DNA of 64,000 nt from Pecten maximus (GCF_902652985.1 NC_047018.1:50592001-50656000), one strand, 5' to 3'; shown: positions 1,214-63,847, counted from the first letter of the stretch. Notes: a model not told the origin generated them from the sequence alone. A program made the numbers and translations.

Positions 1214-1292
1214 TTTCAGATCTTACAGTATAAAATATGACGAAGAGGACTTGGATGACATCCCTTCCTAACAATATCTTTCCCGTCGCCAT
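1214..1292 (-). CDS. Signal-peptide first exon, probably of a third paralogue running off the left edge
   Basis: ATG..MATGKILLGRDVIQVLFVIFYTVRSE followed by a phase-1 GTAAGT donor. Homologous to three other copies (3931-4635, 24868-24949, 39017-39078) with a shared upstream flank. Confidence 0.65.
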
Positions 1293-1792
1293 TCTGAGTT
1301 TAATGGCGACTCTCCACATCAACAAGGAAGTGAAATGGACAGTGTTTAAGTTTCATGTTTCCAATATCAAATGACTGTTTTGCACGAGGTGTATTTTATA
1401 ATGACAAAGCATACTTGTGCCAAACTATTGAGTCAATCGCTATTTAGACGGTGTATTTCATTGCAATAAAACCATACAATATATACACACAGAGTTCTGT
1501 TAACACTAGGCGTAAAATAAACTGCCGATATTTAAACCACGACGTTTAAATGTTTAGATTGCAATCTAGCTGGTAATAATTCCTTTTTGAAGGCTATCGG
1601 TTTGACAATGATTTTTATTCCCGCTTTGAGTCGAGTGTTCTTATAAAAATTCCATAATAAAAAACAAGTATTTTGAATTTAACTCTAACGTAAACAACCA
1701 TATTATATCTTTAATTATGAAGCTGTATTGTATTGCCTTAATTGTTCAGGCCTGTCTATTTATGACATTCTGTTCTCTGATCTTTGCTTATA

Positions 1793-2710
1793 CAGTCGAA
1801 CCCACTTAATGTGAAATCGGATATATTGGAATATCGTTTAATTTGAAGTGAAATTAAATCCCCGTCCGAATGCCTTCTTTGTCTTTGTATTGTTTCATCG
1901 GTTATTTTGAAATCGGTTTATTTGAAATATCGCTTTATTTGAAAGGAAATTATTGCCCCCGGCAATGCTAAACCATTGTTTATGTATCGCTTAAATTGAA
2001 AGTCGCCACGACAGGCTTCGATTACCGGTCATTACGGTACGTGCGTCCGATCAAAAGACAGATAAAAATGATATTCTGATTTACACAATACAAATAAATT
2101 GTGACTTTTAATTATTAAATGCGTTTGTTATGTGCATGAATCTTTATGTTTACGAGTATACCTTGAGGGACACAGCTTATTTTGGCTTCTGCTACATGTA
2201 CAGTATACATCGAAATTGACTCTGATTTAACTACACGCGAGACAATTACAAATGACGAGGCCATTATTAAGGATTTGACAGACAATGCTAACAACGTAAC
2301 CAGAACAGTGATATTGACAACAACCCTCAAACAATTCGTGAAAATCCATCTATCACCGACGCACAGGTCCGATTTCAGACGATAGTTTTCGGAAAGTAGC
2401 CCGGATGTACCGGAAACTTGTTCTCATGTGTGTCCGCGAACTCAACATAAACAAAAACAAGCAACAGTCGAAAACGCCTCCCGTCGAATTTAACATTATT
2501 TCTAATAAACCGTGAAACTACTATCATTTTGGAATCGATTGTAAATACTAAGTAAATGTTGATTAACTATATTGAACAATGGTGTGTTGTTTGACGTAAC
2601 GCTGTACTGAAATATGTCGGCAAAAGGCTGGATCCCGGTTATATTGAAAACCGGTTAATTTGAAGTATTTTGCCATTCCCCAAGCATTTCAATATAGCCG
2701 GGTTCGACTG
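1793..2710. mobile_element. pogo/Tigger-like (Tc1-mariner superfamily) non-autonomous element
   Basis: TIRs CAGTCGAACCC...GGGTTCGACTG flanked by TA on both sides; subterminal TTGAAAT-type repeats; internal acidic peptide remnant YIEIDSDLTTRETITNDEAII. Confidence 0.85.
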
Positions 2711-2919
2711 TATATGTTTAATGTGCATTCGGATTGTACCAGTATCTTATATAATATCTAACTGTATACGGTCCTACTGTTCTCTGACTTTATAGGGCCG
2801 TGTACCCAATGACTGGTCTAATTTGGTTAGTTTATAACGACAAAGTGATACTCTAAAGTAAACCAAACAAGCGGCTTTTGCAAAATGGACAAAATTTATT
2901 AGGGTTAGGGTTAGTGTGA

Positions 2920-3930: not shown

Positions 3931-4635
3931 TTTCAGATGAAGCTATATTAAATATGATTCTACCATGTTTGCTATGTAACGCCAGTTTTGATTGGTTTAA
4001 AACCATGTATTATTTTCCAATAACCCACGCTCGTGCCAATAATACACGGTCGTGAGTCACGGCTGTTACAATTTTATATATCTAATATTCACCTGTTATA
4101 CAAAAGGTTACTATAGCCGAGTGGGCTAATGGGTTAGTCTTTCAATAATATTTTATCAAGAAGCGAGTTCGAATCCTACGGAGGCCCCTTTTTTTCTTTT
4201 TTTTTATCCTTTTTTTTTTTTTTTAATTTTCAAAATCAATGCCATATGATAGATGCTCTTATCGTAGTACTGTATTGCCTGTATATTTCATCAACAAATA
4301 ATGCAATACTCAAGAAATAAATTACAAGGTTTTCTAGGGGTTTCTTTGCTGTTTTTCTATTAGAAAGAGGTCGATCTCAGAACTAAACAGTACATGGTAG
4401 AATAGAAATAATCAACTTTGACTCGTGTATTGTTGCAGGATATACAACTCGGACTCGGATATTTTGCAATTTTAATTTAAAAACTCAGGCCTGCGGCCTT
4501 CATTATTAATTTAATTGCAAAATATCCTCGTCCTCGTTGTATATCCTGCAACAATACACAAATCATCGTTAATTATTTCTTAAAGAACAGGACCATGATC
4601 ACACCTTTTCTTAACAATATATTCCTCGTCGCCAT
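3931..4635 (-). pseudogene. Signal-peptide exon split by a 626-bp insertion
   Basis: Joining 4581-4635 to 3931-3954 restores 79 nt encoding MATRNILLRKGVIMVLFFIFNIASSE with a GTAAGT donor. Confidence 0.75.
3955..4580. mobile_element. Non-autonomous DNA element with a terminal long palindrome (Crypton-like architecture)
   Basis: Inserted in the signal exon with no TSD; 12-bp inverted repeat at 3957-3968 and 4392-4403; ~177-bp imperfect palindrome at 4404-4580. Confidence 0.65.
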
Positions 4636-7269: not shown

Positions 7270-8869
7270 AGATACTATATTCTAATAAAAAAAAATGTAA
7301 AAGAAATTCATTACATCATTGATGTTCCTAACTTCCTACCAATAAAGCAGATTTTCTGGTGAGTTGCCACGTAAATTCTGAGGGCTACATATCCTACAGT
7401 TCTTGTTTGTAAACAATTGATCCAATGGAAAGTCAAGACAATTCGTCTTCAAATCTGCAAATCATGGTATAAATTCAAAGACACCCAGGACAGAACCTTG
7501 TTGGTCTACTGCGTTTACTTCCGATGAAAAAAAAGTCAGTTGATACTCGTTGTTTTTATTCAGAAAGGTAATCTTTCAACCTTTGCAAATCTTTCCCTTT
7601 ATTCCATAGCATCGATTTATAACCCAACTTTGAAAATTAAACTTGATATTAGAATGGAAAAAAAAAATTTCAATGTTGAACACACCGTTATAACAGTTAT
7701 AAGTAATTGATGTTTAGTTTTTTTTTAATATGACAACATGTAATCACGGTTTTGTTCCCTTGGTCTAACATTATGTGAATTAACAAATACATTCTTATAA
7801 CACTGTTTTGACGTATACGAATGGTTGAAAATAAAAAGTAAAGAAAAATTAAAAATCAAATATGACATTCAGCAATTTACAATAAGTCAAATTGATGTAT
7901 ATACATTGTAAATCAATGTAACAAGTATAAGCAGGGTTATCGACATGGAAATATAAAAGTATCGGGAAAACGTAGTTCTTACTCCAGTGGGAGTAGTGAT
8001 ATAAAGTATATTTAGCGCAAGTAGAACATGATTATTGGTAGTGATTTACCTTATAAAGACGGTCACCGTTTATATTTGTATAATAATATATGAGGCAATG
8101 TAACTTGGCTTAAAACCTGTAATGCAGCATCGCTCAGGATAAACTTGATGAAAAGCCGGCCAGCACATTTCGTTTAATTCTGATAAAAAATATACAAGTA
8201 AATTAAATAGAGCTGCAATAAACCTTTATTCTATCTAGAGCAATGTAAAATGTGCTTCAAATTCACCAAAAATTATAGAATGTAAAATAAAAAGTAATGT
8301 GAATAAGATTAAATATCTATTAAAATATAGTGATAGAAACTTCCAACTGAGAGCAGCAAATTACAAACACTGACAAAAGTGATATGTCAAACATCAGTTG
8401 TGTTAATAATTCTATAAAAAATGTTATTGGCTTATGGTTTGATGAGCAATATTTTGTCATCTGATTGAATACATGACTGAGTTAAATGTTTCTCTGTATA
8501 ACTAACAGCACAATAACTTCCTAACAATAGGAGCGGGATGCATGATAATTAATGGATAAAACAATCAGGTTATGTATATGTGAACTTAGATTGGTTGTCG
8601 TCGCATCCTTGACGAAAAATGTTAACCTATAGAAGGATTCAGATATTTACAAGATAAAATGTTACAATCACCAAAGCAAACTAAAGTATATAAATAGTTT
8701 CCTTGGATGATTCAGCATTTTCACTTCATAGTTAAAACTTAATACAGCTGTAACGCATCGCTGTTTACTACGGAAACAATTCCAGAGTATGCATCTTCGG
8801 TAAACTATTAAAGCGAAAGCGGTACATTTAAGAATTTTCCGTAAACTCTGTTTAAAATACATGTTTTCA

Positions 8870-10123
8870 AGTACACGGCGATGGTATCCAGATACTCATT
8901 GATCATTTGATGTACACGTCAGTGGTATCCATGTGATGATTAGTCAGTTCATGTACACGTTAATGGTTTCCAGGTACTCATTAATCTGTACAACTACATG
9001 TCGGTGGTATCAAGGTACTCATTAATCAGTTAATGTACACGTCGGCGGTGTTCAGGTACTCATTAATCAGTTCATGTACACGGCGATGGTATCCATGTAC
9101 TCATTAATCAGTTCATGTACACGTCGGTGGAATCCAGGTGTTCATTAATCAGTTCATGTACACGTCGGTGGTATCCATGTACTCATTAATCAGTTCATGT
9201 ACACGTCGGTGGTATCCAGGTGTTCATTAATCAGTTCATGTACACGTCGGTGGTATCCATGTACTCATTAATCAGTTCATGTACACGTCATTAGTATCCA
9301 GGTACTCATTAATCAGTTCATGTATACGTCGGCGATATCTAGGTACTCATTGATCAGTTCATGTACACGTCAGTGGTATCCAGGTACTCATTAATCAGTT
9401 CATGTATACGTCGGCGATATCTAGGTACTCATTGATCAGTTCATGTACACCTCAGTGGTATCCAGGTTCTCATTAATCAGTTCATGTATAAGTCGGCGAT
9501 ATCTAGGTACTCATTGATCAGTTCACGTACACGTTAGTGGTATCCAGGTATTCATTAATCAGATCAGGTACACGTCAGTGGTATCCAGGTACTCATTAAT
9601 CAGTTCATGTATACGTCGGTTGTATCCAGGTACTCAATGATTAGTTCATCTACATGTCAGTGGTATCCAGGTATTCATTAATCAGTTCATGTACACGTCA
9701 GTGGTATCCATGTATTCATTAATCAGTTCATGTACACGTCGGTGGTATCCAGGTACTCATTGATCAGTTCATGTACACGTTAGTGATATCCAGGTACTCA
9801 TGAATCAGTTCATGTACACGTCGGTGGTATATAGGTATTCATTAATCAGTTCATGTATACGTCGGCGGTATTCAGGTACTCATTAATCAGTTTATGTACA
9901 CGTCGGTGGTATCCAGGTACTCATTGATCAGTTCATGTACACGTTAGCGGTATCCAGGTACTCATGAATCAGTTCATGTACACGTCAGTGGTATCCATGT
10001 TTTTATTAATCAGTTCATGTACATGTCGATGGTATCCAGGTACTCATTAAACTGTTCATGAACACGTCGGTGGTATCCAGGTACTCATTAATCAGTTCAT
10101 GTACACGTCGGTGGTATCCAGGT
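8870..10123. repeat. 41-bp tandem repeat, ~30 copies, beginning in the last exon of gene A
   Basis: Unit TCATTAATCAGTTCATGTACACGTCGGTGGTATCCAGGTAC; period 41 (e.g. 9061 to 9102). Confidence 0.97.
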
Positions 10124-13100
10124 AGTCTTTTATGACGTTGTAGCAGTATTGGTACTGATCCTGCATTTGAAATAATTTCATACTTATCGAAAATGCATAA
10201 GATACACACATTATGATCAGTATAATTGCATAACAAATTAATGGGAAAGGGAAATTACTCTTCCAGACCAGCTAAGCTAAGACTGGAAATTACAAAATAA
10301 GAAAAGATTCATCGTCATCCAGTCAAGAACAAACGCGGATAATATGCCTCAATTGAGTAAACCACCAAGAAAGCAGAGGGGCAAATGCCATAGAAACATT
10401 GATAAATAGAGAATGGAGTTTCCCGGTAAGATAACACTCTTATAATCAGTTTGATAGAAATATTAAACAGGAAGCCAATTCCCAATCCAATCAGGACCGC
10501 CATGAAAGTATCGGTATTATCCACTGAAGTTACGATATCTTTCTTGGAGTAGTGGAAATGTCAATATACGTACAAAATTAATCACAAATGCTGGACGTCG
10601 CACAAGCAGCTGACGTGAAATCTGAAAGATATCTACTTCTTCGTCACTCTTCATTTGGTCTCTGGCATTACTGATACAACAGAATAGCCCACTCTGGGAA
10701 TAGCCATCACTGAAACATCAAAAGAGCATGAATGATATTATCATGATACGCAGAGATTCAAAAGCTTAATGCCTTTCCTCCATATCCTCAACAACCGTCA
10801 ATATCAAGTAGTATTTAATAACGTCTAACAAAAGTATATTATAGATAAATATGAAGGAAAACTACATACCGACACATGACTATTACTGTCTTGGTATCGT
10901 CCGATTTGCGTCTGCTGTCAATTAGTTCCAGTAGGTGAAGCAACATGGACGAATCCTTTGGGACTGATGATTCTCCACCCCATCCAGTCATATGAAACAC
11001 TTTAACAGTGGCATTGAAGCTATTTTCCTAAAAGGAGTCAATTACATTTAGGAAAGACATGTTATTTGCATGCAATGGATAATGTCCATAACGAAAGATT
11101 GCAGACTGCAAAATTATATGTATGATGGATAGGGATTTTCTACTAAGGAGGGGCGGCACAAAATGTTGTTAAAAAACGAAAGTGTCTTTTCCGCAGGCTG
11201 TGCCTTTTCTGACTCCTTCATATCAGAGAAATAAACATGTTCATTTATCAGTATTCATGATAGCATATGTTAAGCCAGAATTTTTGAAATCAGGATTCAA
11301 CAATACATATAAAAACTTCAGACACTGCAAAACATCCATCTTACCGCGTTTTCTATTGCGATTTCTAGCAAAGCGACATTGGCTATTGTTGAAGACTTTC
11401 CTTTGTGTTCCAACGTGAAATTCCCGATGGATTTATCTTCACCTTCCCCTGGAAGCCAGTCCTAAGATAGGTAGAATGCAATATATTCTGATACGGTCAT
11501 ATATCAATATGTGTCTGGCAATACTATACTTCTTGATAACTATTTTACAGAGTTCATTTCCTTTAACAGATGCCAGACAATATTTGTTTTTGTTTCATCA
11601 CGACGAAAATGGAGTATGGCAGGCCCATCTAAAAAACCATGTGTTGCTCCACTGTGACGTCACGAACAAATAATGTCACAGGCTGTAACGTTGATGAAAA
11701 GTCTATACCGTCTATATCGAAATAGATATTAATTTTATGTTACATAGGTACTTTGTAAGATTTTATACGGTTCCAGTTGTAATTTTGTAACGTTGATACC
11801 AATATGAACAGATGAAATTACAGTTTTTCAAATAAACTGCACCTCGAGCTTCTTCATTGCGTAACATTTGTATGGAAACACACTTACAATGTCGTCCGGC
11901 TCGATGATGACAATTGTTTGACAGCTGTGGTCCATTATCATCGTCAAAAGATCCACCACGGTGTCCTCCAGAGGAGTCTGTGTGACGATGTACCCAGTTT
12001 TGGATGTATAGGACTAGGTCAAAGGAAAACGGAATACTTGCTTGCATGTGAATGAAAGGTTGATTACATGTGGGAAGCAATGTAGGAGTGATTACTAGGT
12101 ACGTGTACTGGTTTCATTGGGTAATACTGTCACAGACATTTAGTGAAGTAATCATAAGTAGACCCAACATAAAATCCTTCAGGACTTCAGTATGAAGGAT
12201 GTTAACGTTAAGATTGATTCTTTCACAACATCTCTAAATAATCTCATAGCACATTTTTTTTAATTTGTAACAGCATGGAAATGTACCACTAATTCGCTTA
12301 TCGTTGCGTAATGCATATCTGCCGTTATATCATTGAATGGTGGGGAAAGGTGACCAAGTACAAGATTTGATCTAAAATATCACCCGTAATCCCTTGAACT
12401 GCTCACCTATAAAATCACTTTTTAACAAGCAAGTTCTTTGCCATTCTGATTAACTTACAGACATACATAACACACACATACTAGTTAATCCATTTCAACA
12501 AGGTAAAACAAATGTCACATAATACGCATATTACTTACTGGCACTGACACGGCATTAATGTAGTCCGTTCTACAGTCAGCATATGATCGAAGGTACGCCC
12601 TGAACTTGTCAACTGAACAGAACCAGAGGAAAGCATTAATCACAATACTTCCTTTCCACTAACAATTTCTGATAATTCATATGAAGTTAAGTAGTCGAAT
12701 TTTAATCATACATGGTAGTCTATGACTGGTTGAGTAATGAAGAGGATTTTTTTGTTAAATGCAATTCATCACTACAATTGTTTTATGTTCGATAAAACCG
12801 CAAAGATAAAGTATTATTTTAAATTTGCTGATTTAGGGTAAAACACCAAAACATTGAACTACCGTAAAATACTGTAATTTCATTGATGATTATGCAAGGA
12901 AGGTGTCACTTGACGGGAGACCTTGGTGAGTTGGAATACGTTTGCCAAACGAATAGGCAAGACTAGACCAGGTTTATTGCTTCATGTTGATAGAGCTTTT
13001 ATTGGAAAAAAGGTAAATTTTTACCAGCAACGACTGATAAGGTCCTGTTCTTCATCTTGTTTGATGGCAGTAAGGCGGCTCTGTAGCTTGTCTCATCGTA

Positions 13101-43422: not shown

Positions 43423-46400
43423 GTCTTTAATCACGTTGTAGCAACATTGGTACTGCTCCTAAAATAACATTATTTGCATAAAATGATGTCATTAATCGAA
43501 ATACAAGTTTACGTTCCGATTCCAAAAAAACTTTATGCTTTAGATGTATGAAAATTTCTCAGAATCTCATCAACTATTACACAATTTGATCTAATTCACA
43601 AAAGATCAGTCGATATAGATTCCGAAATGTAGCTGTAGGATAGATCATGTGATTCATAAGAGAAGACGCAATTGTTGGAATAGGCAATTATTATTCCTGA
43701 TCAACATGGCAAAGAGGGGCACTCAGAGAATCAGAAAAAAATGTTTAGCTTGAGAGCATCATGTCGAAGATCTCACATTTATCTATGTATCATAATACGT
43801 GTATTTTATGCTTGTACATGCACGACCCGGTTACTCAGTCTTTAGCCAATATCGGATTTTCAGATTGCCATCACAGAAAGTCATCAATGTAAACATGTTA
43901 GATACACACGGATAACTGAATATCAAACGGCATTGTTTTTGTTATATAATACTGGTTTAGGAAAACAAGAAAATAGAAAACGTAATTATAGATCAGATGA
44001 GGAAACCAGTGGAATATAAGTAATACATTTGCATGAAAGGAAACGCTTGATAAAACGGAGAACGCATTTTTCTGGAAAATAAGCACGACTGCCATTCAAA
44101 TTTGGAACTCTTAATGATGTCAAATATCCTATGTAGAAATTGGCGTAGTGACAAAACAATAAACTATTAACTATTTTTCACAATGTAATCATGATGGCGG
44201 GGAAAATAACATATCCGTTAACCTCAAAACCCGTATAAGTCAAAATGTATGTCTAGATATACTTACAAAATTGATTAAAAATGCTGGACGTCGCACAAGT
44301 AGCTGACGAGAAATCTGATAGATATCAACTTCCTCGTCAGATTTTATCTGGTCCCTGGCATTGCTGATACAACAGAAGAGTCCACTCTGGGAATATCCGT
44401 CTCTGGAATACCATAAAAGCAGAAGAAATATTTGCAGTTGACTCGAACAGTTTTTATGAACGATCCTACACATATTTACACAGTAAAATTTGTACTCCTG
44501 TCCTTTTAACACAACAAATACGTACTTCTTTCACAAAGGTCAGAGGTCAGATATCAAACCTAGTATCAATATTTGATCGCTGACACTGGTGATCATGAAA
44601 ATGTTTGAAGCACTTGACGACATTACATACCGACACATAACGAGTGTAGTCTTGGACTCGTCCGATTTACGTCTGCTGTCAACAAGTTCCAGCAGCTGAA
44701 GTAGCGCGGACGAATCCCGAGGGACTGCAGAGTCACTATCCCATCCAGTCATGTGGAACATTCGAACAAGGCTATTAAAGCTAGTCACCTGAAAGAAGTA
44801 AATTCAAATAAGTATATATACCTGTATATGTGTGCAAAATGTTCATAAATTAGAGCGTGTTATCAAAAATATTCAGATTATGATGATGATTTTTCATACA
44901 ACATATAAGATATCTTTCATATTTGTATAAAGTACATGTATGTGGGATAGGAAATTCCACACAATGTGTCGGAAAATCCAAGGTTTTCCCTCATTTTGTC
45001 AGATTTTCAGTCTTTCGCTGATATAAGAGATATCAATACAAATTTGTATGTCCCTTTACCAACACTCAAGACAGCAATTTTGAACCAAGATATTCAACAT
45101 CAAAACCTTACATATTTATATACTAAAAAAAACCGTACCACATTTTCGATAGCAATTTCAAGCACATTGACATTTGCTATTGTTGAAGACGTCCCTTTGT
45201 GTTCCAAAGTGAAATCCCTAATGGTTTTTTCTTCGCCGTCCCCTGGAAGCCAGTCCTAAGATATGAAAATGCATTTAATGATTTAATATGAGTATATTGT
45301 TATGCATAGATCAGACAATGCAACGACTGTGAAAAGAATTTGGTATTTTACGATTAAGTATTTGACTTTAGGTCGACGTTTCAATTTCGGCGTCTACACT
45401 TCGTCTAGTACTGTCACCTTCATCAAAGAATTGACCAGTGCAGGACATGTATACTAAAATGCTACTTGTAAGTGGTTATAATTAAATTCATATATCTTAC
45501 CCTGTATCAAGAAAATGATTGAACATTAAAAATTACTGTGAAGTCAAAAAGAATTTCAGATTAGATCATGGGTATTATTAATCCGTAAAATCAAGAAACA
45601 ATGAGACACCTGTTTTCAGAGTTAGTGGCAGGTATCCGCACTATTTTGCTGTTAAAGAATATTACTTTCTTCCAATAATATTGATTCTAACAATGGCTAT
45701 ACTTATTTTGACATAATGTGTTTAAGTTAATCTCAAGTATCTACTGTTCGTAACAACAAGTGTTTTTTTTATCGTGCTGCCCTGTTGGTATCAATTCTGA
45801 TTAATTTATCTGTGGAAATACGCTTACAATGTCGTCCGGCTCGATGATGACAATTGTTTGACAGCTGTGGTCCATTATCATCGTCAACAGATCCACCACG
45901 GTGCTCTCCAGAGGAGCCTGTGTGACGATGTACCCAGTTTTGGACGTATAGGACTAGGACAAAACAAAACAAAAGGATTTCTGGTATGTGAATGAAAGGT
46001 TAATTACACGTGGAAAGCGATTACTACAAACTTGTATCGGTTCTTTCTGGTAGCATTGCTGCATACATTTGTTTATTAAACCCTAGAATTGTTTAAGTCC
46101 ACAACGTACGATAAATTCAATAGCATGAACGTTGTATAAAATTCAGTAACTCAAAGCATTATCCTCATCATAAGCAGTAGAAGTTAAAAGTGATTCTACC
46201 AACAATCATGGTAGTTGTTTCTAAACAACGAGGTTTTCTTTCCATATCATTCTGGAATAATAATCATAACTCGTAGTTGATATTTTAATATGTATTAAGA
46301 ATATATCGTTAAAGAAAGACAAATATGTACTATCAACAGACCGTATCTGTTCTTGCTACCCTTTCAAATGAATCTAGTATCAATTATCAACAGATAATAC

Positions 46401-49400: not shown

Positions 49401-52400
49401 CAGACTGTTTCATACCTTCTTTTCTGTAACTGTAAGGTCCCGGATGACGTAGAAGGCATACGACCTTTCCCTATCCAAGATGATGCTGAAGTGTGGCGTA
49501 ATCAAAGGTTCTCCTTCATCCGGCCAATATTTGTCACACTTTGGCTGAAATAAAGCAATGAATATAGTTAGTATAGTTTTAGGACACGCTGGTGTTTTAC
49601 ACAATAAATTGTTTTAACGTCATGGGGAGCAAGAACTACATACTGCATCAACATCTCATTTCAATAATTTTACCTTCACTTCTATGAGAGAGCCCACCTT
49701 ATTCAGATGTTCTCACTCCAAACACACAAACCATCCATTTAAACTTTAAAATACGTTACATTTCAGAAATGTATACTAATGAAGTGAACATGTCGATAAA
49801 CAAGTGAGGTGATACAAAAATGATTGATCGCTGAAGATTTAAATGTTATCAACAAACAATTGTTTAAGTCGAGCACAGGTATTTTGCTGTATGTAAGAAA
49901 AGTGATACCCGCACACTGTTTTAAAATTAATTTTGAATAACATCTGAATGTAGATATTGAATAGCGACATACTCTTCCGCCTTCAATCAGATTTGTCAAC
50001 ATAACAATTTTGCCGGTCGTCAGTTGCCAAATCATCCGCCAGAAATCGTTTACAGTTGCAGGCCTTGGTCCTAATAAATAGAATATTAAGAAAGAGATAA
50101 AGTTATATATATATATATATATATAAATTAACTGTTAATCGAGAACTGTTATTTTAAAGCTTCCAGTTTTATAATATAGCTGTCCTCCAGGGACAAAAAC
50201 CGTCTTCGATCATTAGGTCTATTTTTTAATGGATTTGGAAGAAGATTAAGGTGATTTCTCCGGGAGGAAAAGTTCAATTATCAGAGAGCATATTTGTATA
50301 TATTTGCTTTACTTAAACACGTACATTTCTGAATAAATATACTATTTTAATGGTCATGTTTGTATTATTTCTTTGTGTTACTAAATACTGTAATTAAGTA
50401 TGTTTTTTAATTGTTTACAAGTTTACCTTGTGTTGCAACATACTCCGCAGGTTTTGTAACACTCTGTAACAAAAACGATGAACATAATGTGAAATTATTT
50501 AAAACGCATATTCGGGAAAAAAATCTATAAAAATAGGTTAAAAAAAATAAGACACGTCAGTGCAATTGTCGAATTTCGCTCGCATTGTATATAGTCTTCA
50601 CCACTGAAATTTCGGAACAAACTGACAAAACCGGCATGTGATCTAGATTGCATCTATATATTATTACAGTATATTATATTTCATAGTTTCCTTCACTTCT
50701 CGATTTTAAATAATGTAATGAAGGACTCGATACGCGAAACTATGCATTTGGCATTTCAGAGACTGCAAATTCTTTTGTAAGACCACAAGTGATATGATAT
50801 TAGATAATCTGTTAACACCTTGAAATGCTTCATCTTTATCAAGTAGATTATACCGCATAAACCACACTTACGTCGATGTAGTTGGCGTTGATGTAATCGG
50901 AGTATGGATCTGTTCCAACTTTATCAAGAATCACACGGGAATGGTCATCTGTAAAAAAGAAAATATTGATTTACAATATACAATAATAATTTTTTAAGAA
51001 AAATTGTAGCAAAGATTTGCTGGTAATATGATCATATGTATTATTGCCGCTGCTGTCATCAAAACGCTGCAGGAATCGGTACCCAAGTAAACACCAATAT
51101 CCCGATACATTTCTAAAAGTACAAAAATCCAAGTGCGACCTTTGAACAAATAACTTCAACCACTATTACCAAATGATTGGATGCTATTGTGTAAATGTTA
51201 TAAACGGATGAATGCGATTTCTTGTTCACCTATGACTTTTGACCCTTGACCAATGATCCGGAAAATATCTTAATCGAGTTATGGAATTTGAATTATGAAA
51301 CTTCTTTAGAATTTCGGAAGAAAGAGACATCTAATAATTTGATAGACAGATAGACAACCTGATTATTAGAATGTCCTGTTTTTTTCAGCTGTCGTATTCA
51401 CAAAGAGGTAATTATCATTGCGTACCGATAGGAATAGTATTCATTCTAAATTTGATATGATTCATAAATAAAGAAAAATATACTTACAGGGAAATGTGGT
51501 TTTAAATCTGTTCTTTGGCTTGTTTTGTTCTAACATTCCAACTTTATGTTCGTGTAAATCTCCTGACGGTATAGACTGTAACATCATATATAAGAACGTG
51601 TGTATGTTTTTCTATTAAAAGCATATCATCATTATTAAAAATTTAAAAAAAGCGTAGATTGCTTTTGAAATCGACTTTCTCATTCAATCTGATGTACATA
51701 CAAAAGTTTCATATCGGCTTTGTAGAAATGCTTCGAAAGAACAAGTCTACAAGTCATGTGTTCAGGCTCTTCACATTAAACTGGATAACGCAATAAAATT
51801 CAATTCGGCGCTTCCGTGTCTGACTCTCAATTCATATTGAAATGTACAACAGTTATAAGCGTTCACTAGTTGATCCAGGATTTCTTATATTATATATCAT
51901 ATTTATATTTGCATCAGCTTAGACGCCAACGTTACAATTATATGCATTTAAATTTATTTTATATGTAATTTGTTGATATGTATGTACATTATCTAAGAAT
52001 GAATAAATTTTAGATAATGGAACGATAACACACACATTTTACCCTAAATAAACCTTGAGTCGAAGAACATTCTTGGTTTTTTGTCTTGTATCTCCATAAC
52101 ATCAAATGTGTTCAGGTTTATCGTTAAAGATTAATTAACTTTACACAATACTTTGATTGATGTCTCTTTTCTCTTAGCAATTATTATGCCGCTGTATCAG
52201 CCAATGAAAAGCGACGTTACAATCGTTTTTTTAAAGTTATGGGCTGACAGCAAAACAAAAATAGCCACCAAAAATGCTTGTTACGAACAAGATAAGTTAG
52301 TATTAAATAATATGTACCTTATATTCGTTTTCGAAAGCCTTTGCCTTGTTTTGCAGTTTTGTTTGAACAAGAGATTTGAGGGTGGAGACAGGAAATCCAA

Positions 52401-55400
52401 CAGGACCGGAATTATAGTAGACGCTATTAGGAGATCCGGACTTCCCGGCTACCTGCTGAGCGTTTACATATACATGGGCAGAGTCCACGGGTGTTCCATC
52501 TTGATATGTACATCACAAATATACATGTATGCGTACATTATTCCGATGACGATGTGGAATTAAAGATGACGCATATCGACACAGAGTAGTAAATGATCTT
52601 TAGAAATTTTTCTAGTTAACATATATCACCTGCTGTATTACTGAGAGTGTTTTTCTCCGCCGCATCAGATTTGCCAGGCTGATTTTCTGTTTCTAGTGGT
52701 TCGTTGTACATGTTCACGTGTACATTGGAACGACCGATATCGGTAAAGGATTCCTGTTTACTGGCATTTATTCTACGTCTATAAACGGAAAATGAAATAA
52801 TATAAATTTGTGAGAACAATTTTGATACATAGAAAATATCTAATACTGTCTTAAGTATTGCCAAATATATTTGGCGCATCACTCGTGAAAAATATAAAAA
52901 AATATTAGCCATACGAGTTTTATTTATTACATTTTTATTGTAAAATATACCAGGTCAGCTTTTAATTTCCCTCATTGTCGTTTGTCAACAGTGTTTTGAT
53001 AAGTTAAATCAGAAGTGATATTTGAAAAATAACAGAAAGAAGTGATATTTTTCACGAGCGAAATCTATCACTTTAATAGAATGAACAGTTTGGGATATTT
53101 CACTTTTAAAAATGTAATACATTATTTTCCTTTCTTCATCAATGCCTGTCTGAATTAACAAATTATCAAAAACAACAGGAGTCAACTCAAAATCGTATAA
53201 ACGAGGCAAAATGCAATTAAAGAATCAATTCAATATGCATTTAAACATTTCATCTTTAAGAGAACAAGAGTAGGCGTTCACCAAGGGCGTCCTCTGTTTC
53301 CAGACTATCAGGTTCTAAAATATTAGCAATTACGTTGCAAAATAAATATCAAAAATAGCAACACATTGCCATTTATATTAGTTTAGTTCTGTTTTGTTCA
53401 GCTCTGGCAATTTTCAAATAATATACTAATGAGACTACATTTCGAAAAGTGTTCCTCATGAAGAGGTCTCAATGCTGATACTAATTATTTGTTGTCCAAT
53501 CACATTTCAATTATTTCAGTCTTCCTTCTCATTTTTAATATTAAAATGTTTTCAGGTATAACCCATTGGCATTCGATTTATAAATTCTTGAACATTCAGC
53601 GTTTACATTAACAATCTTGATCTTTTTTCTAAATTTCGCTATCTCTATTAGCTTATTAGTTTTTGGAAAGTCCAAAATCACATCATAACGAAAAAATCAA
53701 CTTTTATAGTAAAAAACTTCTCTTTTTTTTTTTTTTCAAGACTAATATCAAATATTCTTACAAGAAGGCGATTGAGTCATTTTAGGTATCAATTATTGAG
53801 TTTGAAAATGTCAAAATCATTTGAAATAATCTAAGAGTGATACATAATATCTAATCAAAAGTTAGGTATTGCATAAAATAGGCTTTCTTAACAAATGTTT
53901 TTCTTATTATTGATGTACAAGCATGAATATCTGTTGAATATTGAAAAATGATGATTATTCTGGCTTCATGCAATTTCTTAATAAACACTGTAATACACTA
54001 CCTTTTTATGAGGATGACAATAACAATAGCGATGACAGCCACAACAATTACCCCTACAATAGCTCCTACTATTGGCCCTGCCTCTACTGGATGATTTTCG
54101 AACGCTTGGGCTTGTGCTGTAAAATATATATATATAAAAACATGTTATAAAAGAATTAAGGTAATTTCTACTTAATCTTCTAAAACATATCGATACTAAT
54201 CCAAAAGCTTCTGTATTATATCATATTTTTCAAATCAATTACTTTAGATTCATGTATACAAATCTAATTTTGACAATGATCTGTTTGTTAAATAACACTT
54301 TCTTTCATGGATTTCATTCTCATTTAACCGTTTGTGCGTTTGTTATCCTTCATGTAAGTTGATTAGAAACGCAGGGATGAAAAAGTACTTGTATTGCAGA
54401 AATCTCCATGGTAACCAGGATCACACGATGTCACACAAACACCATTGTCCTTTATACAGCTACTGCAATAGCCGCATGTCTTGGTGCAATCCATTCCGTA
54501 CAAACCCGGCGTACATTCTTTTGAAAGGCACAGAAAACAAAATTAAAGCTTCACTGCAAGTAGTCAGAATTGGGTTTCTTTATCAGTTAAATATACAAAA
54601 GGGATCAACATATAATAATTTAAGTTCATAATATTAACGGTTATTAATCATATTGTATTATTTTACAGGTAACAGTGCTAAAATAAACTTACCCGTGCAT
54701 TTTCCGCTCTGCTGATCACATTCAGCACAACTACTATTGCATGTCATCAAACAGTTTGTACCGTAAAATCTTGCAGTACAGCCTAGAAATTAAATGTGTG
54801 TCTTAGTTCAGTAACATAACATAATGATGATGACGTTTCTCGATTAACAAGCATTTGTCATACTTGCAAAAGTGATAAATTGTTAAGAGCAGAATGTGTC
54901 AGCGTGTGCGACGTTTTCTTCGATGTAACAAGACAATAATATTTCATTTATTGAAAGGGGAATATTACTGGATGTGTACAGATATTTAAAAGTATATAAC
55001 CTAGTCATTGTTATTCACCTATACAGTCTCCTGAGTCCTTTCTACACAACTTCTCATCACAATTTCTATGACAGTCCTGATCACACGCATCGCCGTACTT
55101 TCCAGTAACGCATTCTGAAAACATAATAAACATACACAATTGATCATAGTCTTTATCTGTTTTTACCAGCCATTATTTGTCACACGTTAATATTACCATA
55201 TTAAAACAAATTAATTGATACAATGAGAATCATTGATATCAAACAGTAACTCACCTTTACAAGATCCTGTGTCCTGATCACACAGCATGTCTTTACAATT
55301 TCTTGAACAGTTCTGATCACAGTTTGTACCGTACTTTTCAGGGATACAGTCTGTAAAATATAATGTCCCTCCATCGCAAATGATACTTTTACGCATATTA

Positions 55401-58400
55401 TCGTTTTGTCGTCATTTAAATGTCACAAAATTATCATCTTAATTAGGGTAATTGGTTTGAAACGACGACAAGTAGTCAGAACCCATGCATTCTCCGCTTT
55501 GCAGATCACATTTAGCACAACTGCTATTGCATGTCATCAAACAGTTTGTACCGTAAAATCTTGCAGTACAGCCTAGAAATTAAATGTGTGTCTTAATTCA
55601 GTAACATAACATAATGATGAAGACGTTTCTCGATTAACAAGCATTTGTCATACTTGGAAAAGTGATAAATTGTTAAGAGCATAATGTGTCAGCGTGTGCA
55701 AAGTTTTCTTCGATGTAACAAGACATTAATATTTCATTTATTGAAAGGGGATATTACTGGATGTTTTCAGTCATTTAAAAGTATATAACCTAGTTATTGT
55801 TAATCACCTATACAGTCTCCTGAGTCCTTTCTACACAACTGCTCATCACAATTTCTAGGACAGTCCTGATCACACGCATCGCCGTACTTTCCAGTAACGC
55901 ATTCTGAAAACATAATAAACATCGCCAGTGAGTGACAGAACCACAAAACACGTTATGTTGTAACGCAAAAGCTTTACTTTGGCTAAACAGGAAACACGAG
56001 GAGAATAACAAAACGTTTACAAAAGAATCCGGATCCGGATAAACTTTCCGGACACACCTAGTGGCGTTACCACTTTTCCTCTTTTTGTAATATATATTAT
56101 CACATATGAAAAGTCACTGAGGTATCAGGAGTACGATGATATTCTCACTAGCCCTTGAAAACGGAATATTTCGTTTGACGACAAGAAACTGAAGCAACAT
56201 TCAAGTAACGTTTGACATCTCGCACATTCGTTAGCTTTTTTGAGGGTCGTGTGCCTTGCTTGAGGTGGGCACACGTGCGGCGCAAGTCACTACAGTCTGA
56301 CTGAAGGTTGTGCCATGCTGACCGACTGATAAATGGCATGGACGCAGACCCTTCAATGATGTCGTTGGTCGAAGCACTGCGCACAACGGAGTCTGTTGAA
56401 ATATTCACGAAGGTGCAGATCTGACATGTGGGTTCCTCACATGAAAGAGCATTACGACTTGAGAAATCTGCAGGTAGATTAGCAGAGCCAGCTACATGTC
56501 GGATGGTGACCTTGAATCGGCTTGCAGTTGACAGAAATGTGGTTACACGTGGGATAGCAGAAAACTCGCCACGGCAGAGCTTTTTGAATGCTTGCACACA
56601 AGGTTTGCTGTCTGTGAGAACACAAGTGTTGTGTGCAGATTGAATGATATATGGCGAAAAGTGTTTAATGGCGGCTGCTATGGAGAGTGCTTCAATATCA
56701 CACGGAAGCCATCGTGCCTGATTCTTTCTCAGTTTGTCACTGAAGAAACCGCCAAGTTCGGTTTTTCCATCGCGTGTGACATAAAGTGTGGCACCTTGAC
56801 CGGGATTCCGAACGGCACCATCGGTTACAATCCATAGCTGGTCGTTAGAACGAGGTAAGGTGATTGTGCGGTTTGATGAAAGCGCTTTCTGGGCAGCTGT
56901 GAAAGCATTGATAAGTTCATCGGACCAAGAGATATTGTCTTTGGATTCGCGGCCCGCAACAGCATCATCTAGAGCAGACATCAGTTTGGAACAATCCTTC
57001 AGCACTCTTGCCATAACTTTGTAAGCGCCGATGAAAGATCTGAGACCTGATACCCTAGAAGGCCTAGAGCATGTGGATAAAGTGGATATGCGGTGAGGAC
57101 TTGCGCGAATAGTCCCTAGGCACCATGTCCATCCTAAAATTGAAGTTTGCTTTGGGGCAATGACAGTTTTTGACGCGGAAAGATTCAATCCGCTCTGTCT
57201 GAGTGCTACAAGAACATCTATCCAGTTGGTCAACAATTCTTCCAATGTGTTACAACCGCAGTATAGGTCGTCAGCGACTTTGGCAACACAACCTTTCTCC
57301 ACCAAGTCACCCAGTACACGGCATGTAAGTTCCTCCAAAGCTGTTTCCGAGCCTGGCATGCCCATGGCACACCTTGCATACACACGGACACCCTTAAATG
57401 GTGTTACTACGCCACAGTATTTCATAGAGTCTCGGGACATTGGTATCTGGTAAAATGCCTTTGTAAGATCAGTGGTAATAATGTACTTCCATTGCGCGAT
57501 CTGTCGTAGTGTAGAATCCACGTCGGGTATGATAGATGGTTGCGGTTTGGCGTAGCAACCAACATCGGCGAACGCAGTAACTAAACGATAACCTCCTTGT
57601 GGTTTCCTAATCAGGAAGGATTGTTTAACATATTCAACGGCAATGTTTATGCCCTCGGGTCGTCTGAAAACACCCATACCCTCAAGCTCGTCAAATTTGT
57701 CTTGCAGTTCTACGAGTTGGTTTCGCGAATATTGAGGAACTCTCCCTTTCCGTTGGGGTGGTTGGACGGGCCCCATGTTGACATGTGCCTGGAACGATCC
57801 AACAGCACCATTGTAGCCTTTGAATGTCGGATTAAACACATCATCGAACTCCAAAAGCACCTTGTTAAATTTGGCCTTCATATTGTGCGGTAAGATGTTA
57901 TCTGGATCTAGTTTGACTAGCTCCGAGTGGTGAGTCATAGTCGAAATTCTGTGCTTACATGTAGGTGTTGCACTTACATCAAGCTCTTGGACGAGGTCAG
58001 GAGAGGTTGTGGTTCTCGCAATGCAGAAATGCTCATGTCTCTTCACTTGTTGAGGCAACTTTGTGAGATTCGGAATACGGGTTTTGCCAGATACGATTGA
58101 CACTATGGTCGGTTGGGGCCAGACGGTGTCATTATCCTTGCCCGCCTCAGGGGGCTCAAGTGCAATTGTCTCATTACTGTGATGAAACTGGTCAGTGAGA
58201 TTAATTTCTATGTACTCACCAGGCCAGATACTTGATCGCGATGGTGCGCGCAGTACACGTCGAACTGCATGTCTATCCATCGATGATGGGGGCGAGTTAT
58301 AGGAATACGTTGAGCTACCACCAACCATGATTAGTCGTTTTGCAGGTCGGACAAGAATATTATTGGCTTCCATCAACGGGATTCCAGCAAGGACATCCGA

Positions 58401-61400
58401 ATCAAGGTTTTCAACAGTAAGTCCCTCGAAATACAAGTGGAGTCCATCAAGAGAGAATGTTGCTCGTGTTTCGCCAAGTAGTTTCAATGGAGACGATCCG
58501 TCGGCTTGGTTCGCAGACTGCCATGTGCTAGTCACTCATTAGCCTAAATTGGATGCACACGACGCGCGCATCATGTTTGCAGTCGCACCGCTATCGATTG
58601 TTAGTCGTACTACAGTATGGGAACAAAACACATCCAAATATGGAGACTGTTGAACTCTGACCCTGTTTATGATTGGAGGCAGAGCCTCTTCACTCTCAGA
58701 ATTATGGTCTGAACTATCATCCTCACAAGTGCCAATGATTTGTTGTGCACGTGCGAAAAATTTCTGGTCCTGTGTTGGAAGGAAGCTACATTTACTTAAA
58801 AAATGGTTACTGTCCCTTCTTTCTGCTTTGCACAGTGGGCATGATTTCCATGGTTTTCTAAACTGTACTGTTTTTGGAGGTGCGGAGGATCGTTTTGATG
58901 AATATGATGCTGCGGTACGCATCGCTCTAGCGTCTTCAGTAGTTTGGAGCTCCTCGCGTAAGGAGTCGAGGGCCTGAGAAATGTCAGGCTTGATGGATGC
59001 GAGAGTTCTTGATCGTAGCTCTGTCCCATACCTTTGCTTCACTAATTTAGGGAGATCACTATGAATGAGCCTTAACCACGTTAAAATCACAAAATTCTCT
59101 AAAGAGGAAGTCATTTCCTCATCTTCAACTATTTCTTCACCGTGATGCGTGATACCGGAATCAGTGCATAACAGGTTGTCCTCTGTAAATGCCATCAATC
59201 TTTGATACAGCTCTTCATATCTTTCAGTGGGTTCAAGTTTGATAGAACAAAAGTCAATGAAGTGAGTCCCTGTCGACTGAAATCCATAATGATATCTGAT
59301 TTGTTGCCAGATAAATGCAATTGAGTTTTTAACAATGGTGTTTCTGGCAATTATGGGGGCATAATTTGCTATTTGTCCTAACATAAGTTCTAAGGTGGTT
59401 ACCTTTTGTTCGCGTGTCTTACGTATAGCCTCGGCAACATCTTCGCCGTCGTTTCAAAGCCCCTATGTGGTGCGGCTCTCGTTTTCCTTTCCCAATGTGC
59501 GCCATCAATTAGAAATGGAGCAAAATTAGAGTCAAGTGAAAGTGTATATACGAGGCTTTGTTTCCAGTTCTCGAATGAATTGACAGTTTCAGTTTTTGTG
59601 AGGCTCCATTGCTGCGGGGCCCTGTGCGCCATGATCGAATATGTATACTTCACAACGTGTAACTGTTACTGCCACTTACGTTATTGTTGTCCAAACGTGA
59701 GTTCACAAACGATGCCACCACGCCAGTGAGTGACATAACCACAAACACGTTATGTTGTAACGCAAAAAACTTAACTATGGCTAAACAGGAAACACGAGGA
59801 GAATAACAAAACGTTTACAAAAGAATCCGGATCCGGATAAATTTTCCGGACACACCTAGTGGCGCATATATAATTGATCATAGTCTTTATCTGTTTTTAC
59901 CAGCCATTATTTGTCACACGTTAATATAACCATATTAAAACAAATTAATTGATACAATGAGAAATATTGATATCAAACAGTAACTCACCTTTACAAGATC
60001 CTGTGTCCCGATCACACAACATGTCTTTACAATTTCTTGAACAGTTCTGATCACAGTTGTATGTACCGTACTTTTCAGGGATACAGTCTGTAAAATATAA
60101 TGTCCCTCCATCGCAAATGATACTTTAACGCATATTATCGTTTTGTCGTTATTCAAATGTCACATTAATATCATCTTAATTAGGGTAATTGGTTTGAAAC
60201 GACGAAAAGTAGTCAGAACCCATGCATTCTCCGCTTTGCAGATCACATGAAGCACAACTGCAATTGCATGTCATCAAACAGTTTGTACCGTAAAATCTTG
60301 CAGTACAGCCTAGAAATTAAATGTGTGTCTTAGTTCAGTAACATAACATAATGATGATGATTTTTTTTCGATTAACAAGCGTTTGTCAAACTTGGAAAAG
60401 TGATAAATTGTTAAGAGCAGAATGTGTCAGCGTGTGCAAAGTTTTCTTCGATGTAACAAGACAATAATATTTCATTTATTGAAAGGGGATATTACTGGAT
60501 GTTTTCAGTCATTTAAAAGTATATAACCTAGTCATTGTTATTCACCTATACAGTCTCCTGAGTCCTTTCTACACAACTTCTCATCACAATTTCTAGGACA
60601 GTCTTGATCACACGAATCGCCGTACTTTCCAGTAACACATTCTAAAAACATAAGAATGAATAATTGATCATGGTCATTATCTGTTTTTACCAGCTTTTAT
60701 TTATTGTCAATAACATTTGTACGATTTATCACATGTTAATATTACCATATTAAAACAAATTAATTGATACAAAGAAAAATATTGATATCGGACAGTAACT
60801 CACCTTTACAGGATCCTTTGTCCCGATCACACAGCGTGTCCTTACAATTTCCTGAACAGTTTTGATCACAGTTAGCACCGTACTTTCCAGGAATACAGCC
60901 TGTAAAATATAACGTCCCTCCATCGCAAATGATACTTTAACGCATATTATCGTTTTGTCGTCATTTAAATGTCACAATATTACTATCTTAATTTTGGTAA
61001 TTGGTTTGAAACGATGACAAGTAGTCAGAACCTGTGCATTCTCCGCTCTGCTGCTCACATTTAGCACAGTTGCTATTGCATGTCATCAAACAGTTTGTAC
61101 CGTAAAATCATCCAGTATAGTCTAGAAAGTAAATGTGTGACTTCATAATGTGAGATAATGATAAAGATGTTCCACGATTAACAAGCATTTGTAATTTGTA
61201 AAAGTGATAAAAGGTTAAGAGCAGAATGTGTAATTCATCAGCGTGTGCAAAGTAATCTTCAATGTAGCAAGACATCCATATTTCATTTATTGAAAGGGGA
61301 ATATTACCTGCATTCAATAGTATATAACCTATTAATTGTTATTTACCTATACAGTGTCCCGAGTCCCTTTTACACAACGTCTCATTACAATTTCTAGGAC

Positions 61401-63653
61401 AGTCCTGATTACACGAATCACCGTACCTTCCAGTAACGCATTCTGAAAACATAATAATGCATAATTAATCATGGTAATTATCTATTTTTGCCGGGTTTTT
61501 TTATTATCAATTTTATTTGCACGATTTATCACACGTTATTATTACCATATTAAAACAAATTGCAGTCAAACCTGTCTATAAAGAACGCCCAATGGGAGAC
61601 AAAAACGGTCAATATAGACAGGTTGCCTTTATAGACAGGTCAAAATTATCTCACAAACCAGTTTCCGTGAAACTGCAATAAATAACTTCTCCCTGAACAG
61701 GAGATTCAGCACATTTTCAGAGGTCAAATCAATGCGTACAATTTTTATGTATATATATATCTTATAAATCTGAAAGATTAATTCTTTATTAAAAAGACTT
61801 TTCCATTAAAAACTCAATAATAAAACATGATTTTCTGGAGTCCAAGACGAAACATAACTCAAAATGGTCTAATGGATACAAAAGTAACTTTTTAAAAATT
61901 TTGTTCTGAAATATTATTATATTTATTTATCAAGTTATCTCCCTTCCTTTCTTAAATTAAAAAACACACAATATTTTATGAATTATTTTGTAATTGATAC
62001 AATTAAAAATATATCAAACAGTAACTCACCTTTACAAGATCCTGTGTCCCAATCACACATCATGTCCTTACAATTTCCTGAACAGTTCTGATCACAGTTA
62101 GTACCGTGCTTTCCAGGTATACAGTCTGTAAAATATCAGTGTCTATCCATAGTAAATGATACTTTAATACATATTATCGTTTTGTCGTCATATAAATGTC
62201 AAAGTATTATCATCTTAATTACCGTTATTGGTTTAATACGACGACAAATAAGGTCCACAATGAGCTTTTAAAAATGAATTTCTGTGCTTTTGATAGTTTG
62301 TATTGTTTTTGAAGGTATGCAAAAACTATCCAATATTTTACTTCGAGATGAGAAAAAAAATCTTCTGACAATCATATCGTAGCAATTTTCGGACAACAAA
62401 CTAAACAAAACTCTCATTCAGATACAAAAACGAAATGTCTTATTATTTCTGCCTCAGAAACTAGATAATGAATTACTACGGCTACTAGATAACTATGTGA
62501 TGTTCTCAACACGTTAACTGCGATAGTGATACAGGTAAACTTAAACGTCTAGTAGAGACCAAGGCGGAATCTTCATCTTACCCTTTAATAATAATTTTTA
62601 AAATGTTAAAAATATACTATACACACTATATAGCTATGAATAATCCGTCACAACAGTTGAACTTTATCGGCGAAGACTGGGGGGAAATGAAAATAAATCG
62701 AAAACACTGGTGTATTAGACAATATTTATGTTAAAATACTATTTACATTGATATTAATAACTTATCTCGATACATGTATATGATATTTTACTGACTTTCA
62801 ATTTTGTTCAATGCATGAGGTTGACTTTGCAAGGTTAACGGTAATAATGGTGAATTCATTTGGTAATATTCTTTATTATATATTATGAATATGCTCGTAG
62901 GCCTGAAGCTCACCATAACATTCCCCATTAAATGTCACAGTATTATTATCTTAATTTTGGTAATTGGTTTGAAACGATGACAAGTAGTCAGAACCCGTGC
63001 ATTCTCCGCTCTGCTGCTCACATTTAGCACAGTTGCTATGGCATGTCATCAAACAGTTTGTACCGTAAAATCATCCAGTATAGTCTAGAAAGTAAATGTG
63101 TGACTTCATAATGTGAGATAATGATAAAGATGTTCCACGATTAACAAGCATTTGTAATTTGTAAAAGTGATAAAAGGTTAAGAGCAGAATGTGTAATTCA
63201 TCAGCGTGTGCAAAGTAATCTTCAATGTAGCAAGACATTCATATTTCATTTATTGAAAGGGGAATATTACCTGCATTCAATAGTATATGCAAGGTTAACG
63301 GTAATAATGGTGAATTCATTTGGTAATATTCTATATCTGAATTTTACTTTATTATGTATTATGAATATGCTCGTAGGCCTGAAGCTCACCATAACATTCC
63401 CCATTAATTTTCTCACACTCTCTGTCCTTGCAATTTTTAGAACATCTATGTTCACATCGAATACCGTACCGCTGATGAGCACAATCTGGAAATACACAAA
63501 ATAATATTTATTTACCTCATGTGTGCTACCTTATTATCGATATCATCGTATATATAGCCATTACAATTGTAAGTACAACGCTATCAACTTTAATATTATT
63601 TTTTTGAATGCATGTCATTAATGGCTTTGACTTCTTTAATGACTCAAGTAAGG

Positions 63654-63689
<36 letters not shown>

Positions 63690-63847
63690 AATTAGAGAGA
63701 ATCACGAACCACTTGACCAAATCAATTACACAGTAGATAAAAATAAATCGCCTATACAGTTTCCCGTGGACTTTTCACACAACATATCCTTACAATTTCG
63801 AGGACAGTCCTGATCACATGTGTTTCCGTACTTTCCAGGGATACAAT
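43390..63847 (-). CDS. Gene B: receptor-type protein tyrosine phosphatase with multi-EGF-like ectodomain, 5'-incomplete (continues past the window end)
   Basis: EGF-like exons: 63752-63847, 63390-63485, 62030-62125, 61347-61442, 60804-60899, 60546-60641, (60220-60309), 59989-60087, 55808-55903, (55483-55572), 55255-55350, 55019-55114, 54693-54782, 54389-54517. TM exon 54002-54116. Juxtamembrane exons 52630-52778 and 52318-52499. D1: 51488-51575, 50872-50948, 50427-50463, 49973-50070, 49416-49544, 48981-49126 (WPDHG..HC), 48620-48755 (SAGIGRTG), 47827-47973. D2: 47176-47275, 46693-46766, 45828-45953, 45139-45255, 44631-44788, 44267-44402, 43390-43458 ([22 protein letters not shown]). Confidence 0.93.
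46328..46555. repeat. 54-63-bp minisatellite, ~4 copies
   Basis: TATCAA(C/A)AGA..GTTCTTGCT at 46331, 46385, 46448 and 46511. Confidence 0.8.
55923..56066 (-). repeat. 3' LTR
   Basis: Direct repeat of 59721-59864 with about 5 substitutions and 2 single-base indels; preceded by the PPT. Confidence 0.93.
56073..56086 (-). other. Polypurine tract
   Basis: AAAAAGAGGAAAAG, 6 nt before the 3' LTR. Confidence 0.8.
56148..58535 (-). CDS. pol: pol fragment: protease C-part, reverse transcriptase, RNase H; truncated before integrase
   Basis: 795-aa ORF with [22 protein letters not shown] (YxDD equivalent), LRSFIG and RNase H motifs VTDG / IEAL / LTDSKP / ADFSSR. No DDE integrase core before the PPT. 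Confidence 0.9.
58539..59632 (-). pseudogene. gag: gag and N-terminal protease region, frameshifted
   Basis: Starts [11 protein letters not shown], frameshift near 59400-59450, zinc knuckle CPLC-x8-H-x4-C, protease motif LTIDSGATA, then TAA TGA in frame with pol. Confidence 0.85.
59710..59720 (-). other. Primer-binding site, tRNA-Leu-like
   Basis: TGGTGGCATCG abuts the 5' LTR and resembles the complement of tRNA-Leu 3' ends (TGGTGGCAGCG). Confidence 0.65.
59721..59864 (-). repeat. 5' LTR
   Basis: Termini CGCCA...TGGCG; followed directly on the minus strand by the PBS TGGTGGCATCG. Confidence 0.93.
61032..61121 (-). pseudogene. EGF pseudo-exon with an in-frame TGA
   Basis: Reads [13 protein letters not shown]..; the first Cys is replaced by Tyr, TGA is at 61108-61110, and the donor is GTTCTG. 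Confidence 0.8.
61563..61990. mobile_element. Truncated Tc1/pogo-like MITE in an EGF-array intron
   Basis: Starts CAGTCAAACCTGTCTATAAAG with TATAGACAGGT subrepeats. It occupies a TA site that is empty in the sister units; no right TIR is seen. Confidence 0.6.
62995..63084 (-). pseudogene. EGF pseudo-exon with an in-frame TGA (copy of 61032-61121)
   Basis: Same lesions; TGA at 63071-63073. Confidence 0.8.
63656..63688 (+). repeat. Poly-G run (~33 nt)
   Basis: Read directly; a shorter G run is at 23124-23145. Confidence 0.9.

Follow-up and report, generated by a model that had tools for sequence, protein, structure and literature searches.

Among vertebrates, paired receptors such as KIR, Ly49, Siglec-5/14 and SIRP are clustered, share or exchange their ligand-binding domains, evolve by birth and death and vary between haplotypes, and their inhibitory members recruit SHP-1/2 through immunoreceptor tyrosine-based inhibitory motifs (ITIMs). 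Draper has an ectodomain of EGF repeats, and CD45 (PTPRC) is a single gene, varied by splicing, that has neither lectin nor EGF modules. The closest described receptors are those of two snails. The main text of the report on SudRes1 of Biomphalaria sudanica (PMC12297450) describes clusters of lectin-like, MEGF and receptor protein tyrosine phosphatase (RPTP) genes, in which clustered paralogues combine a galactose-binding-like domain (GBD), multiple EGF modules, a transmembrane (TM) segment and tandem protein tyrosine phosphatase (PTP) domains beside neighboring MEGF genes without PTP, with EGF loss and gene presence/absence between haplotypes. In Biomphalaria glabrata, the "scavenger class F-like" genes of LG5R are described, in the parts of the report covered (PMC13712769), as one cluster with divergent haplotypes whose fucolectin/EGF/TM proteins end in either a small tail (type 1B) or two PTPs (type 1C). 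Here we describe a related array in the scallop Pecten maximus, centered on a window of 64,000 nucleotides (G000:C4:50592001-50656000) that touches three RPTP genes, C, A and B. Variable F-type lectin heads and EGF stalks stand in this tandem array on either a tandem PTP or a two-tyrosine tail, and we consider the two receptor types to be likely partners in an off/on pair for glycan recognition (probability about 0.55).

The surroundings analyzed with the window comprised 424 kb of C4, all of the unplaced contig C394 and a single locus on C7, and exons were mapped by modules taken from a full-length paralogue. The nearest database proteins are labeled as receptor PTPs of P. maximus, followed by those of other scallops and oysters. 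An earlier note on this DNA had proposed at least two, probably three, head-to-tail paralogues with conserved intracellular exon structure, and this holds: C (represented in the window by its signal exon), A and B all lie on the minus strand, and each of the 15 D1/D2 exons of A matches its equivalent in B in length, with differences of 3-6 nt confined to the TM exon and two juxtamembrane exons. A full RPTP gene reads signal peptide, F-type lectin, EGF-like exons, TM, intact D1 and degenerate D2. The SudRes1 and LG5R 1C domain order (signal peptide, GBD/fucolectin, MEGF, TM and two PTPs, clustered) is thereby found in B and its paralogues; A has no lectin. The SudRes1 genes differ in being tied by a genome-wide association study to schistosome resistance (PMC12297450, main text).

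In both A and B a single TM is followed by a D1 with WPD, HCX5R and Q-loop motifs, as in receptor-type tandem PTPs; D1 carries [17 protein letters not shown] and the Q-loop, D2 carries CRDGYSQSG and lacks the catalytic Arg, and PF00102 occurs twice in the paralogue P0004. With its motifs intact and an M0 omega of 0.13, D1 is predicted to be an active phosphatase, its pTyr loop reading KNRF instead of KNRY. YxN motifs, presumably Grb2 sites, are conserved in the juxtamembrane and C-terminal regions. The D2 P-loop, which we take to resemble that of CD45, suggested CD45 orthology as a candidate; it found no support, since the CD45 score of 323 bits lies below those of LAR, RPTP-alpha, sigma and epsilon, at 380-415 (a measure of similarity, without a tree). 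The loose likeness to CD45 ectodomain variation drawn by the earlier note therefore survives as an analogy only, because the phosphatase domains are closer to LAR/RPTP-alpha; tandem PTP domains with a degenerate D2 and an ectodomain of variable length are shared with CD45.

The second tail type came to light between A and B. The lectin and EGF block that the earlier note had placed there is present, but it lies on the strand opposite to the RPTP genes and is broken, its second lectin exon having a stop and a lost acceptor and its EGF exons being interrupted. Its counterpart on C394 runs on to a TM exon and a short tail, and by the label taken from that counterpart the block is to be read as a relic of a second, short-tailed receptor type. 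That it might instead be A's own ectodomain, inverted, was ruled out, since C394 has both A's full minus-strand ectodomain and the plus-strand, short-tailed counterpart of the block. The tail motif DxxYTSI-x10-YEMV (DxxYxxI-x10-YxxV) occurs in all nine genomic tail exons examined, one of which has an upstream stop; genome-wide, 21 tail matches (of 23 candidates) all fall at 47.9-50.9 Mb of C4 or on three unplaced contigs. Among 14 related proteins, nine, representing four scallop genera, contain YxxI/L-x10-YxxI/V/M, with tyrosines ten residues apart and differing spacers; the other five are without the tail motif, in three or four apparently because the model ends early. The two half-motifs agree strictly with those of the consensus D/ExxYxxL/I-x(6-12)-YxxL/I in five of the 14 (P0050-52, P0055, P0057). 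Contigs of runs X1, X2 and X4, which carry no tissue labels and whose identity as RNA is a guess, show tail, TM and EGF exons spliced together. In one X2 contig an RPTP-type EGF exon is connected with a short-tail stem, 547 letters lying between them, at a likeness of only 88%, so that paralogues contribute to this link.

Such a tail resembles an ITAM (immunoreceptor tyrosine-based activation motif), which in Draper/CED-1/MEGF10 and oyster CgIgR is read by Shark/Syk, according to the portions of two reports covered (bioRxiv 10.1101/198986, PMC6994640), ITAM-Syk signaling having been demonstrated in oyster (PMC6994640). Draper and CgIgR differ in lacking an F-type lectin head and a head-sharing, PTP-tailed sister, and the Draper tail is longer. 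By contrast with the scallop tail, the small tail of LG5R is called free of an identifiable signature, and the main text of that report has no match for ITAM; the parts covered contain neither lectin swapping nor a selection test (PMC13712769). The main text on SudRes1 likewise has no match for ITAM, fucose, F-type or bivalve (PMC12297450). In a literature search covering openly accessible main texts, we found no paper on an ITAM tail, lectin swapping or such pairing in molluscs; tail motifs may be treated in the supplements to both Biomphalaria reports. The receptor architecture is thus already known from Biomphalaria; the ITAM-like tail and lectin swapping are added here.

Lectin heads are mixed between the two tail types. 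Our lectin tree combined 20 genomic sequences with 19 out of 35 database proteins, giving 39 rows (16 of the proteins were dropped, the domain being absent or missed by the pattern). Tail type changes 11 times on it, against 11.4 for shuffled labels, with at least six changes forced by starred branches, and a single ITAM clade is rejected (p-AU 2e-5). One ITAM-type and one PTP-type gene share lectin exon 1 at 96.5%, and sister genes by phosphatase have distant lectins: in C and D, D1 dS is 0.013 and lectin dS 0.29, and in E and B, D2 dS is 0.04 and lectin dS 0.47. Ligand domains are hence shared and exchanged between opposite tail types within one cluster, as among vertebrate paired receptors, from which the scallop system would differ in that a phosphatase would be part of the inhibitory member itself and an ITAM part of the activating one.

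The exchanged domain is an F-type lectin. Its best PDB sequence matches are the fucolectins FBP32 (E 2.7e-17) and 1k12, and a fold search with a structure model of a paralogue (pLDDT 87) puts FBP32/1k12-type fucolectins first, the F-type fold being found in paralogues P0004 and P0047. Of 17 lectins, 17, 16 and 15 retain the respective residues of the His/Arg/Arg triad, as defined for F-type lectins in the sections of PMC5712786 covered, and three flanking loops are variable. The Arg-Arg spacing is that of the second FBP32 domain; the acidic residue of the motif HX24RXDX4(R/K) is often replaced, and the DG of h2DGx is mostly DN/DD. Binding of glycans, including fucose, by these heads is putative. 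Averaged over the same ten genes, dN/dS reaches 0.46 in the lectin and 0.62 in the TM/juxtamembrane part, with D1 at 0.12 and D2 at 0.24; in the comparison of ectodomain and D1 that the earlier note had named as a check, the ectodomain evolves the faster. Comparison of models M1a and M2a shows positive selection in lectin exon 1 (likelihood-ratio test statistic, LRT, 41.8; omega 3.7 at 15% of sites; six sites >0.95) and none in D1. The signal persists after gap removal (LRT 44.6), none of the 30 mosaic-tree nulls reaches it (highest value 16.1), and the selected sites lie in segments aligned with CDR1 and CDR2 of the eel lectin and just after the pocket His. The pocket loops of the lectin are under positive selection.

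By analogy with the systems above, the two receptor types likely provide off/on sensing of sugars on microbes or other cells; the immune or allorecognition role suggested in the earlier note is putative. A glycan would cluster the short-tailed receptor, whose ITAM-like motif would be phosphorylated by a Src-family kinase and would recruit Syk, on the pattern of Draper and oyster CgIgR. The same glycan, or one like it, would also attract an RPTP with a related lectin, which would carry out dephosphorylation by way of D1, stalk length setting its reach. Because the exons are symmetric, in phase 1-1, unequal crossing-over could add, drop or swap modules with the frame unbroken. For snail loci of similar architecture, the link to schistosome resistance lacks a mechanism, and their short-tailed members are reported to bear no signature. 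The scallop array offers a concrete, testable model with an ITAM-like on-switch, a phosphatase off-switch and exchangeable glycan heads, and names the selected lectin loops. If correct, it would represent an invertebrate route to paired receptors and a candidate disease-resistance locus in farmed bivalves. We put forward more tentatively, at somewhat less than even odds, the fuller proposal of a mollusc paired-receptor system in which the inhibitory partner's own phosphatase replaces the ITIM, positively selected glycan-binding heads are repeatedly swapped from one kind of tail, ITAM or phosphatase, to the other, and whole genes and ectodomains vary between haplotypes, one case being a ligand-blind phosphatase allele from a recent 33-kb deletion.

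Several points weigh against off/on pairing. The second half-motif is YxxV in all nine genomic tails, against YxxL/I in the consensus. Shared ligands are not a given, since the acidic residue of the lectin motif is frequently replaced and paired heads are mostly only ~73% identical. At a dN/dS of ~0.6, the TM/juxtamembrane exons are no slower in evolution than the lectin, lectin exon 2 is without positive selection (LRT 1.5), and M0, M1a and M2a were fitted by a custom script with tree branch lengths fixed up to scale. Tail labels for other species come from database gene models, two PTP labels from TM/juxtamembrane exons only, and that of the intergenic relic from its C394 counterpart. Many copies are broken, so that part of the variety of the array is decay. 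The pairing itself is a prediction from sequence.

These points leave room for two other functional readings. The receptors might be independent members of a recombination-prone array, head swapping being a by-product of phase 1-1 exons and unequal crossing-over, without on/off pairing. Each could have a role of its own, in scavenging, adhesion, or gamete or self recognition like oyster bindin, whose F-lectins, in the parts of PMC5712786 covered, diversify through selection, recombination and splicing in fertilization; pseudogenes, orphan signal exons and satellites are numerous. We nevertheless regard this as unlikely: four genera preserve the tail motif together with its spacing, the frames of swapped genes are open and these genes are represented by database models, and the snail homologues map to parasite-resistance loci. 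Alternatively, a bulky RPTP might act in the manner of CD45, being excluded from close contacts or activating Src-family kinases and so licensing or tuning the ITAM receptor, in which case stalk length would matter and not a shared ligand. The spread of EGF numbers among RPTP genes, from 1 to 18, the conserved YxN motifs and the closeness of D1 to LAR/RPTP-alpha speak for such a role, as does the exclusion of a bulky RPTP during Draper triggering (bioRxiv 10.1101/198986, in the parts covered). Size exclusion, however, needs no diversifying pocket, yet the pocket loops are positively selected and heads move between types, and we judge this role improbable.

Gene B illustrates growth of the stalk. 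The earlier note had given A one EGF-like exon and B 12-14 or more, and had named a lectin at the 5' end of B and in intact paralogues as something to check; the EGF count of A stands, B has 18 EGF exons (16 of them in the window) besides its signal exon, and the lectin of B is present just beyond the window, split over two exons, a division the note had missed. Intact paralogues likewise have a lectin at the 5' end. Most of the B stalk consists of three-exon repeats, like exons being 84-98% identical, and is interrupted by a long terminal repeat (LTR) retrotransposon. Three of the EGF exons are dead, two through in-frame stops (at 61032 and 62995) and one, outside the window, through a broken acceptor; without them B has an open frame of 1358 residues. 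An AG acceptor and GT/GC donor at phase 1-1 bound 17 of the 18 EGF exons (one with a GC donor) and both lectin exons; the caller's overall count of 287/287 is not an independent test, because it looked for boundaries only in the expected phase. Automated EGF counts in other full-length RPTP genes mapped on C4 and C7 are 10 to 15, and gene C gives 12 EGF matches without the TM-proximal 43-aa EGF. The array thus bears out the birth-and-death picture of the earlier note, with EGF exon duplication, loss and variable architecture; of its three proposed modes of diversification, duplication and loss are seen, and exon skipping is only implied by the dead exons of B. As a detail of B, its second juxtamembrane exon (52318-52499) has an apparent acceptor 6 nt downstream of the usual one.

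Gene A illustrates loss. The 151 bases around 24852 consist of two halves, each 100% identical to places on C394 that lie 33 kb apart, so that A is a deletion product relative to C394 and has a single EGF exon because ~33 kb present there is missing. The absent stretch contains the signal, lectin and ten EGF exons of A's C394 counterpart, which itself has a broken D1 exon. An in-frame signal exon, overlooked in the earlier note, now lies 600 bp upstream of the EGF exon of A, and the joined frame is open over 755 residues; probably, A is either a derivative blind to ligand or a gene at an early stage of decay. No contig in four runs covers window positions 24819-25300, which makes these runs uninformative on expression of the new signal exon. 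C394 may be either the other haplotype or a second paralogous array: at >=98%, no more than 11.5 of the 587 kb can be aligned with the 424 kb of C4, and the order differs, without a unique anchor. The short ectodomain of A and the C4/C394 differences could be assembly artifacts, given a repetitive array, an unplaced contig with three gaps and a junction taken from the assembly. We think this very unlikely, as two distinct sequences meet at the junction with a single additional base and without a repeat common to both, the C394 block is gap-free from 434273 to 559725, and not one N occurs in the C4 region.

Table 1. Features of the window and its right flank, in window numbering
Feature	Position	Strand	Remark
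Signal-peptide exon, RPTP gene C	1214-1292	-	remainder of C left of window
Orphan signal-peptide exon, truncated	4582-4635	-	
41-bp minisatellite	8866-10124	.	from last codons + stop of gene A
Gene A, whole	10092-24263	-	
Gene A, D2 exons	10092-13124	-	P-loop CRDGYSQSG type, catalytic Arg lost
Gene A, D1 exons	13386-21431	-	[18 protein letters not shown]-loop present; spliced joints seen at family level
325-, 158- and 155-bp satellites	14794-17085, 19672-20795, 29108-30186		
Gene A, TM + two juxtamembrane exons	21909-23447	-	with tyrosine motifs
Gene A, sole EGF-like exon left	24174-24263	-	phase 1-1
Deletion junction	24851-24853	.	~33 kb of G000:C394 (483337-516325) absent here
Signal-peptide exon of neighboring unit	24868-24949	-	in frame, weak donor GTTGCT
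Broken F-type lectin + EGF block	31235-38120	+	relic of opposite-strand gene; its C394 counterpart ends in TM + ITAM-like tail
Orphan signal-peptide exon, damaged	39017-39078 (limits approximate)	-	
41-bp minisatellite	41890-43433	.	behind stop of gene B
Gene B, whole	43390-63847, on to 70571	-	
Gene B, D2 exons	43390-47275	-	
Gene B, D1 exons	47827-51575	-	catalytic motifs intact
Gene B, TM + juxtamembrane exons	52318-54116	-	
Gene B, 16 EGF-like exons	54389-63847	-	mostly tandem three-exon unit; two with stops
LTR retrotransposon in intron of B's EGF array	55923-59864	-	reverse transcriptase + RNase H; terminal repeats 95% alike over 145 bp
Gene B, lectin	65892-68706	-	two exons; just outside window
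Gene B, signal exon	70493-70571	-	just outside window

Clusters of PTP and F-type lectin exon matches occur at many further places on C4 (1.2-50.9 Mb), so that the family is much larger than the part mapped. Within that part, a segmental duplication of ~110 kb appears to relate the pair E-C to the pair B-D, and A to a broken gene F (-65217..1292 versus 43390..111259 in window numbering), the intracellular parts being 94-98% alike and the ectodomains far less. An RPTP gene on C394 (71049-75829) has an internal duplication of juxtamembrane and D1 exons, and its database model, P0003, stops after D1. For gene I, to the right of the window, the database isoform P0047 comprises signal, lectin and three EGFs without a TM, possibly a soluble decoy form. 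Orphan signal-peptide exons sit upstream of genes, several of them on C394, and intact ones on C394 and C4 could act as alternative first exons.

The 41-bp minisatellite, composed of last codons and stop (…DTTDVYMN*), trails the last exons of RPTP genes in 17 arrays of 5-34 matches each on C4, C394 and C7, and is also present, at window positions 10070-10156, in contigs of the runs guessed to be RNA. The 325- and 158-bp satellites are abundant in contigs of the runs examined. A PHD-finger reading frame on the minus strand at 25705-26022 has no link to the receptors and is probably of mobile-element origin.

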